A program made the position numbers and the translations under genes. A stretch of DNA of 49,902 bases from the NCBI GenBank assembly GCA_046292385.1, contig JBKBRF010000049.1, positions 1 through 49,902 on the forward strand, in the 5' to 3' direction. Source of the stretch: Armatimonadota bacterium. Lineage in GTDB: Bacteria > Armatimonadota > SYMT01. The notes below the pieces were generated by a model. That model had not been told where the DNA came from and ran no database searches. It saw only the letters and a list, made by a program, of their open reading frames with translations. This document shows positions 3,887 to 42,691 of this stretch, piece after piece (position 1 is the first letter of the stretch; each line of letters begins with the position of its first letter).

Positions 3887-4981
3887 TTAACCCTCGATCC
3901 CGCACGCGCGCCGGAGGTCCCTCTCCAGCGCCACGTACGGCTCGCTTCCTACCTTCTCCGGCGCGCGCGGAGCTGCCTCCACGACGGCAGTCAGGGCCCG
4001 GCAGCGCTCGATGCGGGCCGCCGATTCCGCCAGCCGTGCCTCCGAAAGCTCCCCCTCCCGCACCGCGCGGCAGACCGCCGCGTGCATCCGCTGCTGCGTC
4101 TCCAGGGAGTGGCAGACCAGCAGCATGTCAGCCCCCGCCTGCAGCGCCAGCACCGCCGTCTCCTCCGGCGTCCAGTGGTCCGCGATCCCGCGCATCTCCA
4201 GGCAGTCGGTCACGACCAGCCCGTCGAATCCCAGCTCCTCCCGCAGGAGGCCGGTCAGGATCCGCCGGGAGAGCGTGCCCGGGCGCTCCGGATCGAGCTC
4301 CCGGAACAGGATGTGCGCGCTCATCACCGCGGGCGCTCCCGCCGCGAGCGCCGCCCGGAACGGCACCAGCTCCACCGCGTCCAGGCGCGCCCGGTCGACC
4401 GCCAGCTCCGGCAGCGCCAGGTGGCTGTCGACGCTCGTGTCTCCGTGTCCGGGGAAGTGCTTCACCACCGGCACGATTCCCGCCTCTAGGTAGCCCGCCA
4501 GCGCCGCGCAGCCGTGCCGTGCCACCCGCTCCGGATCGGCGCCGAAGGAGCGGTTGTTGATCACCGGATTCCGGGGGTTATTGTTGACGTCGATGTCCGG
4601 CGCGAAGTTCACGGTGATCCCGAGTGCCGCCAGCTGTTCCCCGATGGCGCGCGCCGCGGCCTGGGTCGTCTGCGGCTGGTCCAGGCGGCCCAGGCACTCG
4701 TTCGGGACGAAGACGAGACCGGGACGCGCCAGCCGCGCGATGCGGCCGCCCTCCTGGTCGATGCCGATCAGCGGGGAGCGCTTCGCGCGGGCGCGGAGCC
4801 GGGTGGTCAGCGCGGCGATCTCTTCGGCCGTCCCCAGGTTGCGCGGGAAGAGCACGAGACCGCCGACCTGCAGCTCTTCCACCAGCAGGCGGGCGTGGTC
4901 GTTGTAGCCGGCCGGGTCCGGCTCGTCGCCGTCTCCCCAGCCGCACCAGAGCACCTGCCCCGCCAGCTCTTCCAACGTCAC
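3887..4981 (-). CDS. nagZ: Beta-N-acetylhexosaminidase (GH3)
   Basis: IGIDQEGGRIARL, KHFPGHGDTSVDSH, VTDCLEM; GTG 4981 overlaps the upstream stop (GTGA). Confidence 0.9.
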   Translation of the reverse strand: MTLEELAGQVLWCGWGDGDEPDPAGYNDHARLLVEELQVGGLVLFPRNLGTAEEIAALTTRLRARAKRSPLIGIDQEGGRIARLARPGLVFVPNECLGRLDQPQTTQAAARAIGEQLAALGITVNFAPDIDVNNNPRNPVINNRSFGADPERVARHGCAALAGYLEAGIVPVVKHFPGHGDTSVDSHLALPELAVDRARLDAVELVPFRAALAAGAPAVMSAHILFRELDPERPGTLSRRILTGLLREELGFDGLVVTDCLEMRGIADHWTPEETAVLALQAGADMLLVCHSLETQQRMHAAVCRAVREGELSEARLAESAARIERCRALTAVVEAAPRAPEKVGSEPYVALERDLRRACGIEG

Positions 4982-38042: not shown

Positions 38043-40667
38043 ATGGCTCGCCGCTCGCCCGAGAATCGAAATTCCGCGTCTCGCTCCCGCCGGCCCCGCA
38101 CCGGCGCGGCAGCGGGGGCGGCGCTGCTGGCGATCACCCTCGCCGGGGCGTGCGCCGGCCTGGCCGCGCCGGGGAGCGAAGGCGTCGATCTCTCCCGGAT
38201 TCCGCCCGCCGCGGCGCGGAAGGTCGACTTCGTCCGCGACATCCGCCCGATCCTCAACGCGAAATGCGTCGCCTGCCACGGCCCGGCCAAGCTGATGGGC
38301 GGGCTCCGGCTCCACAACCGGGCCGACGCGCTGGCCGGCGGCGACAGCGGCGCGGCGATTGTGCCGGGGAAGGGCGCGGAGAGCCGGCTGGTCCACTACG
38401 TCGCCGGCGCGGTCGACGGCAAGCTGATGCCTCCCGCGGGCGAGCGGCTGTCGGCGGAGCAGGTGGGGCTGCTGCGCGCCTGGATCGACCAGGGTGCCGA
38501 ATGGCCCGCCTCGGCCGACGCGGAGACGCCCCGCAACCCGCACTGGGCGTTCCAGCCGGTAAAGCGCCCCGCCGTTCCCGCGGTGAAGCGAAAAGGGTGG
38601 GTAACGAACCCGATCGACGCCTTCGTCCTCGCCCGGCTGGAGCAGCGCGGCCTCCGTCCCTCGACGCCCGCCGATCGCGTCACCCTGCTCCGCCGGGTGA
38701 GCCTCGACCTGACCGGCATCCCGCCGACCCCGGAAGAGGTCGACGCCTTCGTGAACGACCGCCGTCCCGGCGCGTACGAGCGGGTGGTCGACCGTCTCCT
38801 CGCCAGCCCGCATTACGGAGAGCGGTGGGGCCGTCACTGGCTCGACCTCGCCCGCTATGCGGACAGCAACGGCTACACCATCGACAGCCCGCGCCAGATG
38901 TGGCCCTACCGGGACTGGGTGATCCGCGCGCTGAACGACGACATGCCGTTCGACCGGTTCACCGTGGAGCAACTCGCGGGCGATCTGCTGCCGAACGCCG
39001 GCGAGTCCCAGAAGATCGCCACCGGCTTCCACCGCAACACGCTCATCAACGAGGAAGGCGGCACCGACCCGGAGCAGTTCCGGGTAGAGGCGGTCGTCGA
39101 CCGCGCCAACACCACCGGCGCGGTCTGGCTCGGGCTCACCGTCGGCTGCGCGCAGTGCCATACGCACAAGTTCGATCCGATCACCCAGAAGGAGTACTAC
39201 CGGCTCTTCGCCTTCTTCAACACGCAGGACGAGCCGACCCTCGCCTTCCCCACCCCGGAGCAGATGCGGAAGCAGTCCGAGCTGAGGGCGGCCCTAGCGG
39301 CGGCGCAGCGGGAGCTGACCGCCTACGAAAAGGCGCACCCGCAGGGGGAGAACGATCCGGAGCGGCTCCAACTGGCGCGGCGGGTGAACGACCTGAAGCG
39401 GGAGGAGAAGGAGCTGGCGGGCGAGATCCCGACCGCGATGGTCCTCGCCGAGCGGAAGCAGCCGCGCGAGACGTTCGTCCACCTCCGGGGCGACTTCTTG
39501 CGGAAGGGACAGCCGGTCCAGCCCGGCGTCCCCTCCGTGCTTTCGGCGCTCCAGGTCGATTCTCCCCGCCCGGCAAACCGGCTCGACCTCGCCCGGTGGC
39601 TCGTCTCCCCGGAGAACCCGCTCACGTCCCGCGTGACCGTGAACCGGGTGTGGATGCGCTACTTCGGCACCGGCTTGGTGGAGACCGAAAATGACTTCGG
39701 GCTCCAGGGCACCCCGCCCACGCACCCGGAGCTTCTCGACTACCTCGCCTCTGTCTTCGCGACAGCGGGTACTTCTCACGTAGACGACGGAGAGACTGTA
39801 GAGACAGAGGGACGGAGAGACAGAGGGAAAGAGGGAGTCCGAACCGCCGCTTACCGAGAAGCGCAGCCTGCCACGCGGGCACAGCTCTCTTCGTCTCTCC
39901 GTCCCTCTGTCTCTCCGTCACGTGGATTGGGCTGGTCGCTCAAGGCGCTTCACCGGCTCATCGTCACCAGCAGCACCTACCGGCAGGCGTCGCACGCGCG
40001 GGAGGACCTGGCGGCGAAGGATCCGCAGAACCGGCTGCTGGGGCGGCAGAACCGGCTGCGGCTCGACGCGGAGATCATCCGCGACTCCGCCCTCGCGGCC
40101 AGCGGCCTCCTCTCGCGCAAGATCGGCGGGCCCAGCGTCTTCCCGCCGCAGCCCGCCGGCACCGACGGGTTGACCCAGGTGAAGCGGAAGTGGACCGTCA
40201 GCAAAGGGGAGGACCGGTACCGCCGGGGGATGTACACCTGGCACTGGCGCTCCAACCAGTACGCCCTCTTCGCCACCTTCGACGCGCCGAACGGGAACAC
40301 CGCCTGCACGCGGCGGATGCGGTCCAACACGCCCACCCAGGCGCTAATGCTGGCGAACGACGAGGCGTTCGTCGAGATGGCGCAGGCGCTGGCAGCCCGC
40401 ACCCTGCGAGAGGCCCCGGCCACCGAGGACGCGCGGCTCCGCTACGCCTTCCGCCGCTGCCTCTCCCGCGAGCCACTGCCCGAAGAGCTGCAGCGGCTAA
40501 TCCGCTTCCTGCGGCTGCAGGTGCTCCGCTTCCGCGGGGCTCCCGGGGATGCAGAAGCCGCCGCCCCGAAGGACCGCCCGGAAGAAATGGATACGCCCAC
40601 CGCCGCCGCCTGGACCGCCGTAGCACGCGTGCTGCTCAACCTGGATGAATTCGTTACCCGAGAGTAG
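38043..40667 (+). CDS. Planctomycete cytochrome C (PSCyt1) + DUF1549 + DUF1553 protein
   Basis: CVACHG, NPIDAFV, YGERWGRHWLDLARYADS, CAQCHTHKFDPI, HPELLDYLA, RLDAEIIRD, LLNLDEFVTRE. Confidence 0.93.
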   Translation: MARRSPENRNSASRSRRPRTGAAAGAALLAITLAGACAGLAAPGSEGVDLSRIPPAAARKVDFVRDIRPILNAKCVACHGPAKLMGGLRLHNRADALAGGDSGAAIVPGKGAESRLVHYVAGAVDGKLMPPAGERLSAEQVGLLRAWIDQGAEWPASADAETPRNPHWAFQPVKRPAVPAVKRKGWVTNPIDAFVLARLEQRGLRPSTPADRVTLLRRVSLDLTGIPPTPEEVDAFVNDRRPGAYERVVDRLLASPHYGERWGRHWLDLARYADSNGYTIDSPRQMWPYRDWVIRALNDDMPFDRFTVEQLAGDLLPNAGESQKIATGFHRNTLINEEGGTDPEQFRVEAVVDRANTTGAVWLGLTVGCAQCHTHKFDPITQKEYYRLFAFFNTQDEPTLAFPTPEQMRKQSELRAALAAAQRELTAYEKAHPQGENDPERLQLARRVNDLKREEKELAGEIPTAMVLAERKQPRETFVHLRGDFLRKGQPVQPGVPSVLSALQVDSPRPANRLDLARWLVSPENPLTSRVTVNRVWMRYFGTGLVETENDFGLQGTPPTHPELLDYLASVFATAGTSHVDDGETVETEGRRDRGKEGVRTAAYREAQPATRAQLSSSLRPSVSPSRGLGWSLKALHRLIVTSSTYRQASHAREDLAAKDPQNRLLGRQNRLRLDAEIIRDSALAASGLLSRKIGGPSVFPPQPAGTDGLTQVKRKWTVSKGEDRYRRGMYTWHWRSNQYALFATFDAPNGNTACTRRMRSNTPTQALMLANDEAFVEMAQALAARTLREAPATEDARLRYAFRRCLSREPLPEELQRLIRFLRLQVLRFRGAPGDAEAAAPKDRPEEMDTPTAAAWTAVARVLLNLDEFVTRE
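39776..39924. repeat. Octamer-armed inverted repeat inside the DUF1553 coding frame
   Basis: Purine arm (GAC[AG]GAG[AG])n at 39786-39837 versus pyrimidine arm at 39885-39919. Confidence 0.85.
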
Positions 40668-41194
40668 GGGGTAGCGTTTAGGGTGTAGCGTGTAGGCGTC
40701 CCGAATGACTTTCCAAGCTCAAATGCCGGCACCTTCGGTGGTAGAAACCGTTCGGATGGAGCGATCGATAACCGCGATGCAAACGGAGAGCTATCGGGAC
40801 CTGAAGGTGTGGCAGAAGGGGATGGATCTTGCGGTCGCCAGTTATCAGCTCACGCGAAACTTCCCGCGGGAAGAGCAATTCAGCCTCACGAGCCAGATTC
40901 GTCGAGCGGCGGCTTCGATTCCCGCCAATATTGCGGAGGGATACGGAAGAGGACACCGGCCGGAGTACACACAGTTCCTGCACATTGCTCAGGGCAGCCT
41001 GAAGGAGCTGGAGACGTTACTGCTCTTGAGCGGACGCGTGGAGGTTTCTAGTAAAGATCACCTGACGCCGGCGCTGGAGCTGTGTGACGAAGTCGGAAGA
41101 ATGCTTCGAACCATGATCCGCGGCTTGAACAGCCGTTAGCCGCCATGCACCCCCTACCGGTCATCTACACGCTACACCCTAACCGCTACACCCT
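40666..41194. mobile_element. Putative cassette: four-helix-bundle gene flanked by a 30-bp heptameric inverted repeat
   Basis: Arms 40666-40695 and 41165-41194 match 28/30 as reverse complements; interior less GC-biased; mobility is inferred. Confidence 0.55.
40777..41139 (+). CDS. Four-helix-bundle protein (23S rRNA intervening-sequence protein / Avd-like family)
   Basis: SYRDLKVWQKGMDL, FPREEQFSLTSQIRRAAASIPANIAEGYGR, FLHIAQGSLKELET; alternative ATG at 40756 or 40705. Confidence 0.92.
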   Translation: MQTESYRDLKVWQKGMDLAVASYQLTRNFPREEQFSLTSQIRRAAASIPANIAEGYGRGHRPEYTQFLHIAQGSLKELETLLLLSGRVEVSSKDHLTPALELCDEVGRMLRTMIRGLNSR

Positions 41195-41233
41195 CTGCCA
41201 GCCGTGTCACACCACAGCCTGGGAGAACGACTG

Positions 41234-42691
41234 ATGTCTCGCGATAGTCAATCTCGCCTGCTGCAGGTCACTCGACGCCATCTCTTTCAGCAGTGCGGCG
41301 TGGGGCTCGGCTCCATCGCCCTGTCTCAACTGGTGGCGGAGGAGGCGGGGGCGGCACCGGCGAAGTCGCGAGCCGCGCGTCCGGCCCCGGAGCCGCTGGC
41401 GCCGAAGCAGACCCATTTTCCCGCCAGGGCGAAGCGGGTGATCTACCTGCACATGGCCGGCGGACCGAGCCAGCTCGACCTCTTCGATCCGAAGCCGAAG
41501 CTCCGGGAGCTGCACGGCCAGGTGACGCCGAAGTCGCTGCTGGAGGGGAAGCGGTTCGCGTTCCTGAAGCCGGACGCGAAGCTGCTCGGCAGCCCTCGCG
41601 AGTTCAAGCGGTACGGCCGGTGCGGCGCCGAGGTCAGCGACCTGCTCCCCCACCTGGCCGGGATCGTGGACGACCTCTGTATCGTCCGCACGATGGCGAC
41701 CGACGTCTTCAACCACGGCCCCGCGAAGATGTTCATCCAGAGCGGCGCGCCGCAGCCCGGCCGCCCCGCCATCGGCTCCTGGCTCACCTACGGGATCGGC
41801 AGCGAGTCGCGGGACCTGCCCGGCTTCGTCGTGCTGCAGTCCGGTCCCCGCGGTCCCCGCGGCGGCGCGGTGCTCTGGAGCAGCGGCTTCCTGCCGACCA
41901 CCTACCAGGGCGTGCCGTTCCTGCCGGGCGCCACGCCGATCGTCGACCTCGCCAGCCCGCGCGGCTTCAACCCGACCCGCCAGCGCGACTTCATCGACGC
42001 CCTGGGCGACCTGAACCGGACCCGTCTCCGCACGATCGGCGATCCGGAGATCGCCACCCGCATCGCGGCGTACGAGATGGCCTACCGGATGCAGCTCAGC
42101 GCGCCGGAGCTGATGGACCTCCGCCAAGAGGACCCGAAGACGCTGGAGAGCTACGGCGCCCAGCCCGGCAAGCACTCGTTCGCCAACAACTGCCTCCTCG
42201 CCCGGCGCCTCGTGGAGCGGGGCGTGCGCTTCGTCCAGCTCTACCACACCGATTGGGACCACCACGGCGGGCCGAACATGGACCTGGAGACCCACTTCCC
42301 CACCATCTGCCGGGAGGTGGACCAGCCGTGCGCCGCGCTGGTGCGGGACCTGAAGCAGCGCGGCCTGCTGGACGACACGATCGTGATCTGGGGCGGCGAG
42401 TTCGGACGTACGCCCATGGGCGAGGCGCGGGAGACGACCGGGCGCGACCACCACATCGAGGCGTTCACCATGTGGATGGCGGGCGGCGGCTTCAAGGCGG
42501 GAGCAGTGATCGGCTCCACCGACGAGCTCGGCTACAACCCGGTCGACGAGCGCGTCCACGTGCACGACCTGCACGCCACGCTGCTGCACCTGCTGGGGCT
42601 GGACCACAAGCGGCTCACCTACCGCTTCCAGGGGCGAGACTTCCGGCTCACCGACGTGCACGGCAACGTAGTGCAGAAGCTGCTCGCCTAG
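41234..42691 (+). CDS. DUF1501-family protein
   Basis: TRRHLF, KRVIYLHMAGGPSQLDLFDPKP, CLLARRLVERGVRFVQ, WGGEFGRTP, GRDFRLTDVHG; GGGAGA RBS. Confidence 0.92.
   Translation: MSRDSQSRLLQVTRRHLFQQCGVGLGSIALSQLVAEEAGAAPAKSRAARPAPEPLAPKQTHFPARAKRVIYLHMAGGPSQLDLFDPKPKLRELHGQVTPKSLLEGKRFAFLKPDAKLLGSPREFKRYGRCGAEVSDLLPHLAGIVDDLCIVRTMATDVFNHGPAKMFIQSGAPQPGRPAIGSWLTYGIGSESRDLPGFVVLQSGPRGPRGGAVLWSSGFLPTTYQGVPFLPGATPIVDLASPRGFNPTRQRDFIDALGDLNRTRLRTIGDPEIATRIAAYEMAYRMQLSAPELMDLRQEDPKTLESYGAQPGKHSFANNCLLARRLVERGVRFVQLYHTDWDHHGGPNMDLETHFPTICREVDQPCAALVRDLKQRGLLDDTIVIWGGEFGRTPMGEARETTGRDHHIEAFTMWMAGGGFKAGAVIGSTDELGYNPVDERVHVHDLHATLLHLLGLDHKRLTYRFQGRDFRLTDVHGNVVQKLLA

Follow-up and report, generated by a model that had tools for sequence, protein, structure and literature searches.

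How did a small gene of the IVP family (PF05635, 23S_rRNA_IVP; also S23p), enclosed by an inverted repeat of 7-nt units, come to stand between two protein-coding genes, and what do the arms of that repeat do there? The locus occupies positions 40666-41194 of the window, by which the whole analysed stretch of 49,902 nt is meant (contig JBKBRF010000049.1 of assembly GCA_046292385.1, from an Armatimonadota bacterium); its genome, referred to as G000, comprises 7.04 Mb in 91 contigs with 98.45% completeness, and the window locus is C49. The cassette, about 530 bp in size, was found to be a discrete inserted unit of foreign composition, of the same type as the S23p-bearing intervening sequences (IVS) of 23S rRNA and missing at the orthologous junction of two sister genera. 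The design of a gene in a heptamer stem was also found to surround the IVP family across phyla. As a whole, the locus would be explained by an IVS-type cassette, with an S23p gene in a heptamer stem, that was inserted in an mRNA context and is processed by RNase III, an explanation that is favoured at slightly better than an even chance.

The inverted repeat proved to have the coordinates and the match that a first-pass annotation had given it, boxing the IVP gene between a DUF1553 and a DUF1501 gene, all of them on the + strand. The upstream host gene (38043..40667) encodes 874 aa with the domains PSCyt1, PSCyt2 (DUF1549) and PSD1 (DUF1553), and its stop codon TAG (40665-40667) overlaps by 2 nt with the G-rich left (5') arm (40666..40695, AGGGGGTAGCGTTTAGGGTGTAGCGTGTAG), which is composed of 7-nt units of the form KTAGSGK (GTAGGGG, GTAGCGT, TTAGGGT, GTAGCGT and a final GTAG). 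A leader of 81 nt (40696..40776), containing two in-frame upstream ATGs (40705 and 40756), runs from the left arm to the likely start of the IVP gene (40777..41139), and a trailer of 25 nt (41140..41164) connects the IVP stop codon with the C-rich right (3') arm (41165..41194). The two arms are 30 nt long, 93% complementary (28/30) and 469 nt apart, and each contains a direct repeat of 14 nt (2 × 7). Between the right arm and the DUF1501 gene (41234..42691, 485 aa) lies a native-looking spacer of 39 nt (41195..41233), with GGGAGA ahead of the ATG; the earlier description, a left arm over the DUF1553 stop and a right arm some 40 nt before the DUF1501 ATG, is thus matched by the measured 2 and 39 nt. 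A higher share of A/T-ending codons in the enclosed gene had been pointed out as well, and the G+C content at third codon positions (GC3) agrees, with 0.694 for the IVP gene compared with 0.889 for DUF1553 and 0.934 for DUF1501; total GC is 0.576 in the IVP gene versus about 0.70 in the neighbours. This GC3 contrast marks the cassette as foreign in composition. The cassette lies between DUF1553 and DUF1501 genes and not inside a helix of 23S or 16S rRNA, and, among the flanks with an identification, an rRNA context was found for none of the 8 IVP copies of this genome. A weak test for sigma-70-like promoters and for terminators gave no such pattern within 40500-41400.

The enclosed open reading frame (ORF; 40705-41139) matches PF05635 with an E value of 4.7e-38 and 130 bits (cut-off 33.8) and TIGR02436 ('four helix bundle protein') with an E value of 8.4e-36, so that a PF05635/S23p four-helix-bundle ORF is present inside the repeat, and the protein was matched to PDB entry 2gsc with an E value of 4.3e-21. 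The longest version, from 40705, has 144 aa; judging from the alignment with the paralogue on contig C25, the true start is likely ATG 40777 (MQTESYRDLKVW), giving 120 aa. The solved relatives 2gsc and 2rld have 5 chains each, and for the Xanthomonas protein a homopentameric toroid is cited in PMC4990558 (from Lin et al. 2006); the S23p/IVP family, which has been without an assigned function ever since it was discovered in rRNA intervening sequences, is still termed uncharacterised (PMC11270868 and PMC4990558). The four-helix-bundle fold is homologous to that of bAvd, solved relatives being pentameric, and the protein gave weak matches to bAvd (PF22296, 32.5 bits) and DivGenRetAVD (NF033474, 32.9 bits), as would be seen if the gene were a remnant or stand-alone Avd accessory of a diversity-generating retroelement. 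Both scores, however, are under the curated cut-offs (40 for PF22296 and 80 for NF033474), no template/variable repeat pair was noted around the gene, and reverse transcriptase PF00078 gave 0 matches in the 98.45%-complete genome. On the missing reverse transcriptase and the sub-cut-off Avd scores, this origin was rejected as extremely improbable. The cassette itself had been described as free of transposase and reverse transcriptase, which was confirmed, the lack of a reverse transcriptase extending to the whole genome.

Evidence for insertion was obtained by comparing the junction with its counterparts in further genera of the family and in one genome of another family (G010). The orthologous junction is empty in G005, where the stop codon TAG, 6 nt and the ATG follow each other (DUF1501 72% identical), and in G003, where a spacer of 28 nt is present (DUF1501 71.5% identical); the search for an empty site that the first-pass annotation had advised was therefore successful in two sister genera. 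By eye, the window spacer 41195-41233 resembles that of G003 (GCCTGG..AG..GACT..ATG part). The DUF1501 paralogues of G000 are at most 59% identical to the one of the window, compared with approximately 72% for the orthologues, and are therefore older than the split of these genera. The simpler reading of these sequences is that the cassette was probably gained in the window's lineage, since a cassette inherited from an ancestor of the paralogues would have had to disappear cleanly from G003 as well as from G005. The closest relatives of the IVP protein (52-67% identical) have a scattered distribution, with members in Cyanobacteria, Chloroflexi, Alphaproteobacteria, Acidobacteria and other groups. 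No target-site duplication was evident by eye at the boundaries of the window cassette relative to the empty sites. The remaining relatives have other contents at this junction: an unrelated ORF of ~590 nt without heptamer arms in G006 (L011:700-1355), about eight direct copies of a 13-nt unit in G004 (L015:1057-1200), and a gene-less hairpin of ~260 nt made of TTGATGC-type heptamers, extending from the stop codon TAG to the DUF1501 ATG, in G010 (L017, reverse strand). By the look of its sequence, the G006 ORF may encode a Uma2/DUF820-type endonuclease. The junction seems to collect small foreign genes.

The cassette was also recovered in metagenome contigs of two independent runs, with 0 and 2 differences, which makes an assembly artefact unlikely. 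No contig across an empty junction was found among the contigs of four DNA runs on 39800-42100. One contig of a related population (run X4, depth 2) presented an extra 7-nt unit in the left arm at 40671, so that the tandem heptamers (period 7) vary in number, as they do in the Coxiella IVS. Two contig joints were discounted, namely a single joint skipping 468 nt (40688->41157; one contig, side 25) and an 'opposite strands' joint, since repeats and inverted arms give rise to such joints in assemblies. Contigs of several runs break at the arms, and coverage is raised over 40647-40723, as an arm sequence present in multiple copies should produce.

The generality of the arrangement was evaluated on the 8 PF05635 genes of this genome and on loci elsewhere. 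Inverted repeats of 24-32 nt with periodic arms were found around 8/8 of the own-genome genes, with scores of 17-28, which answers the suggestion that paralogue flanks be examined for such repeats; the window cassette scored 24. Since 0/300 random 315-nt segments of the same genome reached a score of 17 (maximum 16), chance is excluded. The arm units differ between the copies, being TAGSGNN in C49 and C25, GAGGGAT-type in C43 and C10, and CGTATTG, AAGGCAG, CTCCTT (6 nt) and GGGAGAGT in the others. The C10 copy (C10:107689-107910, minus strand) matches positions 8-80 of the 106 of the Pfam model and diverges in its C-terminal part, while keeping heptamer arms of 28 nt with a score of 22; it is probably frameshifted or decaying. 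Outside this genome, 80 loci retrieved with a single-protein query, which covers only the IVP subfamily of the window (52-67% identity), were spread over the four groups named above, Planctomycetes and others; 67 of them have arms scoring at least 14 and 58 at least 17, whereas none of 141 controls shifted by 1100 nt reached 14 (maximum 13). The repeat period was 7 in 52 of the outside loci and 8 in 13. In genomes of the same phylum, 19 of 28 IVP loci scored at least 14 by reading of the output.

Some of the outside loci have conspicuous hosts. Two cassettes with identical arms and coordinates are found on plasmid2 and plasmid1 of Calothrix brevissima NIES-22 (L074 and L075, respectively), adjoining a gene of the phage-integrase family, and their gene neighbourhood recurs in L041 and L064. 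In three unrelated genomes (Chroococcidiopsis, Ardenticatenaceae and Nodosilinea), the cassette is contained in a single long ORF, that of a restriction-modification methylase of Eco57I/MmeI type (L031:2380-2950, L043:2420-2960 and L060:2420-2940), whose frame is open through the entire cassette in all three and differs from that of the IVP gene. Fused forms of IVP amounted to 27 longer proteins, almost all of them single sequences with unrelated partner domains, 4 of the 27 having DNA-methylase domains. The longer proteins are read as cassettes merged with host ORFs by gene callers, and no recurrent fusion that would hint at function was seen.

The closest known system, and on analogy the best reading of the present cassette, is the 23S rRNA IVS of Coxiella and Leptospira, the same kind of element here apparently residing in an mRNA. 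As far as the available part of PMC4990558 (2016) goes, which cites Ralph and McClelland 1993 and Afseth et al. 1995 for this system, the Coxiella IVS has 428 nt with an S23p ORF and a 28-bp stem of terminal inverted repeats; RNase III cuts were mapped to the middle of the stem, the tandem heptamers vary in number between strains, and the rRNA pieces, once cut by RNase III, are not rejoined. Shared with it are the ORF family, the size (428 nt there, ~530 nt here), a stem of ~28-30 bp with one or two defects, 5' tandem heptamers of variable number, the lack of a mobility gene and a patchy, horizontal-looking distribution. The present cassette is different in lying between two protein-coding cistrons and starting on the upstream stop codon, and in that both arms are, over their whole length, heptamer arrays from a family with 171 members across the genome.

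At the RNA level, IVP shared its strand with the Pfam-supported upstream gene at 46 of 52 loci and with the downstream one at 37 of 48, in a tally made by hand in which many loci are the same site in related genomes; counted as distinct sites, the upstream figure was ~28 versus 5 by our own count. Recurrent sites were nuoC|nuoD, glnA|DAO, MCP|Hpt and radical-SAM|Memo. Co-direction with the upstream gene fits transcription of the IVP gene within the host mRNA. The claim that the arms close the whole cassette into one RNA stem was upheld as a prediction, the minimum-free-energy fold of 40655-41205 being closed by the arms (-223.6 kcal/mol, z = -3.77, 0/100 shuffles as good); the terminal inverted repeats (28/30) would hence close a long stem as in S23p-type IVSs. 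An RNase III gene is present in this genome.

In the mechanism proposed, an IVP gene without a promoter, together with its arms, would have been inserted behind the DUF1553 stop codon and ahead of the native DUF1501 spacer, and would be transcribed inside the host operon. Within the transcript, the two arms would form a stem of ~30 bp and would be expected to be cut there by RNase III of the cell, just as the 28-bp stem is in Coxiella. The cut would release the IVP message as a separate RNA and part the two host cistrons with no religation. Excision by RNase III has been demonstrated for the Coxiella IVS, whereas for the present cassette we infer it, and a looping out of this kind, in the form of RNase III processing, is plausible by analogy. 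A splicing or rejoining of the flanking cistrons finds no support. At the DNA level, the arms are members of a heptamer-hairpin family that is specific to the lineage and located at the 3' ends of genes, and whose copies vary by whole units and would spread between loci.

Several observations weigh against this explanation. A stem kept by RNA-level selection alone should tolerate G·U over A·C, yet the arm mismatches of 67 loci comprised 47 G·U versus 51 A·C, with 94 transversions and 1935 Watson-Crick pairs; as there is no sense-strand preference for G·U, an upkeep of complementarity at the RNA level is not demonstrable. The arms also persist without the gene in 36 of 38 hairpins of the window's unit type in this genome, and the truncated-looking C10 IVP copy keeps its arms, so that arms have a life of their own that goes beyond the IVS analogy. 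Additionally, simple RNase III processing does not predict that the G-rich arm should so strictly be the 5' one (43 pairs versus 0 in this genome, 66/67 loci elsewhere). For Coxiella itself, S23p was judged to be probably not made there, according to the same part of PMC4990558.

The arm family on which these counts are based is TAG[CG]GNN, with 113 arrays of at least 3 units and 171 of at least 2 units in this genome. Paired arrays with the G-rich one first and the C-rich one second numbered 43 (38 distinct hairpins, spacers of 37-537 nt), while pairs in reverse order numbered 0 and same-orientation pairs 3. The G-rich arm was likewise 5' at the 66 of 67 loci, which come from other phyla, and among all periodic inverted pairs of this genome the G-rich-first order prevailed by 70 to 15, several of the 15 joining neighbouring elements. 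Because an inverted repeat reads alike on both strands, this handedness, with a G-rich 5' arm on either strand, belongs to the element itself and does not reflect the direction of genes. One idea for its cause is that a C-rich arm, if transcribed first, would lay bare a Rho-loading site, but would pair at once if transcribed second. An IVP gene is present in just 2 of the 38 hairpins; no IVP remnant was found in the interiors of the others, which share short matches alone. The three-unit pattern has 178 matches in G000 and 0 in G001, G004, G005 and G006, and the array family is lineage-specific; two of these four sister genomes hold 9-10 IVP genes, which presumably use other units.

A majority of the 38 hairpins lie directly at the 3' end of a long ORF of high GC3, whose stop codon is found between -25 and +14 nt relative to the start of the arm; several of these ORFs, the one in the window included, end on the TAG of an arm unit. 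Such positions, and the 36 of 38 hairpins without a gene, would be expected if the arms were 3'-end hairpins of the host, similar to repetitive extragenic palindromic (REP) sequences and acting as mRNA stabilisers, terminators or G-quadruplex/i-motif structures, with the IVP gene as a passenger without a functional tie; Y1 transposases (IS200/RAYT-type) may then move the arms. The genome has two strong Y1_Tnp genes of IS200/IS605 or RAYT-type (C51:25920-26261 and C22:55627-55965), possible movers of hairpin repeats. REP sequences, bacterial interspersed mosaic elements (BIME) and miniature inverted-repeat transposable elements (MITE) are likewise short, abundant, palindromic, intergenic and often at gene 3' ends. 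In the accessible text of Rehm et al. 2015 (PMC4692102), G-rich heptamer arrays just after stop codons are described, with units GGGAATC in Xanthomonas and GGGGAYT in Nostoc that form quadruplexes (G4) in vitro, and with 70-75 inverted heptamer pairs between aligned ORFs in Xanthomonas. These share with the present arms, to the extent of that text, the intergenic 7-nt units, the frequent convergent inverted pairs, the variable unit number and the chirality, the G-rich strand being sense after stops and antisense before starts.

A passenger without a tie is hard to reconcile, however, with arms at 8/8 own IVP genes and at 67/80 loci elsewhere, far over background, nor would it be expected to have different units for different IVP subfamilies in one host, since a passenger should carry host-typical units. 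Related IVPs of other phyla are accompanied by the same unit, and the TAGSGNN family is all but absent from the four sister genomes, which argues that the arrays are not a stable host feature. In contrast to REP/BIME and MITE sequences, the arms are 7-nt tandem arrays and not a conserved palindrome, their interiors are unrelated, no target-site duplication was seen, and a specific gene family, IVP, was always found inside such arms. The heptamers of Rehm et al. were treated there as simple repeats that form quadruplexes, whereas the pairs here enclose an IVP gene, and the unit families CGTATTG and CTCCTT cannot form G4; within that same portion of PMC4692102, 'helix bundle', 'S23' and 'intervening' occur 0 times, and no enclosed gene or IVP is mentioned. 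Host hairpins with a passenger gene are accordingly considered unlikely. An assignment to MITEs or classical transposons was also set aside, because the arms differ between IVP subfamilies, the interiors are unrelated and no duplication was evident by eye.

The choice of junction is repeated within the genome. Four of the 8 cassettes (C49, C25:42057, C47:9184 and C7:140906) lie between DUF1553 and DUF1501 genes of the same strand, of which there are 39 junctions in this genome by tblastn, 15 of them with a gap of at most 102 nt and without a notable inverted repeat. A fifth junction, C36:4927-5144, has a gene-less hairpin of window-type units, whose left arm (4937-4967) is 100% identical to the reverse complement of window 41165-41195 (31 nt), which takes in the right arm of the window cassette, the flanking proteins being only 46% and 53% identical; in the same way, an array of 35 nt is shared by C4:146931 and C88:5091. 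A quick tree of 71 DUF1501 paralogues grouped the four IVP junctions with the hairpin junction of C36, in a single clade that comprises 12-13 genes and is supported by 98-99 in the approximate likelihood-ratio test (SH-aLRT). In this tree, C49 falls with C7 in one five-gene subclade and C25 with C47 in the other, while the IVP of C49 is 63% identical to that of C25 and 26% and 29% identical to those of C47 and C7. Since IVP similarity departs from the branching of the DUF1501 clade, we read the pattern as the probable outcome of gains, or exchanges, recurring at a single kind of junction, rather than of co-duplication. Two further IVP genes in DUF1553|DUF1501 junctions were found in G006.

The sharing of identical or near-identical arms by unlinked loci (C36 and the window; C4:146931 and C88:5091) is what would be seen if the cassette were a mobile element acting at the level of DNA, with the heptamer arrays as the ends of a hairpin or cruciform and with IVP recognising or maintaining its own kind of array. 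Gene-carrying cassettes would then be autonomous, gene-less hairpins non-autonomous, and the RNA stem a by-product. The junction empty in sister genera, the four cassettes and one same-unit hairpin in one DUF1501 clade with IVP similarity off its branching, the arms without G·U bias, the strict chirality (43 pairs versus 0, 66/67 loci) and the related-population contig with exactly one added left-arm unit all agree with such an element. By eye, the unit type also tracks the IVP subfamily and not the host (TAGSGNN in C49 and C25, GAGGGAT in C43 and C10), and TAGGGTG-type units flank relatives in Nostocales and Acidobacteria (L041, L048, L050, L074, L081 and L084). Nevertheless, neither nuclease nor recombinase chemistry is known for a four-helix bundle of 120 aa, the boundaries of the window cassette showed no target-site duplication, and an Avd-like retro-route would lack its reverse transcriptase. 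The 38 hairpin interiors, sharing short matches only and no IVP remnant, are not simple deletion derivatives of the cassette, and abundant periodic hairpin families without a matching IVP gene exist in this genome. An element acting on DNA is thus regarded as possible but rather improbable.

A further-reaching form of the same proposal, put forward as tentatively, is that IVP and the heptamer hairpins constitute an unrecognised class of mobile elements without a transposase, in which the pentameric IVP ring reads its own 7-nt unit. The ring would drive the building, matching or spread of the arrays, or would guide host enzymes in it; the G-rich strand would run 5'->3' inward from both sides, and the gene-less hairpins would be non-autonomous offspring. 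If this were true, bacterial heptamer repeats and ORF-bearing rRNA IVSs would be two faces of one element.

Turning back to the IVS-type cassette in an mRNA, no literature tying non-rRNA IVP genes to flanking inverted heptamer arrays was found in a search that left subscription journals mostly outside. New are the four cassettes (of 8) that split DUF1553|DUF1501 pairs, all of them in a single clade of DUF1501 paralogues, the size of the arm-unit family, the fixed order with the G-rich arm 5', the co-direction of IVP and upstream gene, the missing G·U excess and the missing reverse transcriptase. Should the unit of stem and gene reside in ordinary operons of many phyla, the element would not be specific to rRNA and could be tested in mRNA. 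The cassette also links the IVP family to heptamer arrays known only, from that portion of PMC4692102, as simple repeats forming G-quadruplexes. Any mechanism is constrained by the G-rich arm being 5' in 43 pairs versus 0, by arms without G·U bias, by a genome without reverse transcriptase and by the reuse of one paralogous junction.

Other periodic repeats of this genome were noted in passing. No recognisable other cargo was found in periodic boxes of the 280-700 nt class (280-1300 nt searched, the ORFs being assessed without Pfam comparison), and what the larger boxes enclose looks like ordinary genes with a separate hairpin on either side. Other abundant inverted-repeat families of G000 form clusters of 72, 67 and 39 members (e.g., C11:45798-45996 and C2:322270-322567), one such family having arms of the type CACCGCAGAGACGC... 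with a periodicity of 8-11 nt and no matching IVP gene in this genome. At C62:11429-12014, four left-arm arrays of the window type follow each other at a spacing of 139 nt and are succeeded by one right arm, forming a tandemly amplified half-element.

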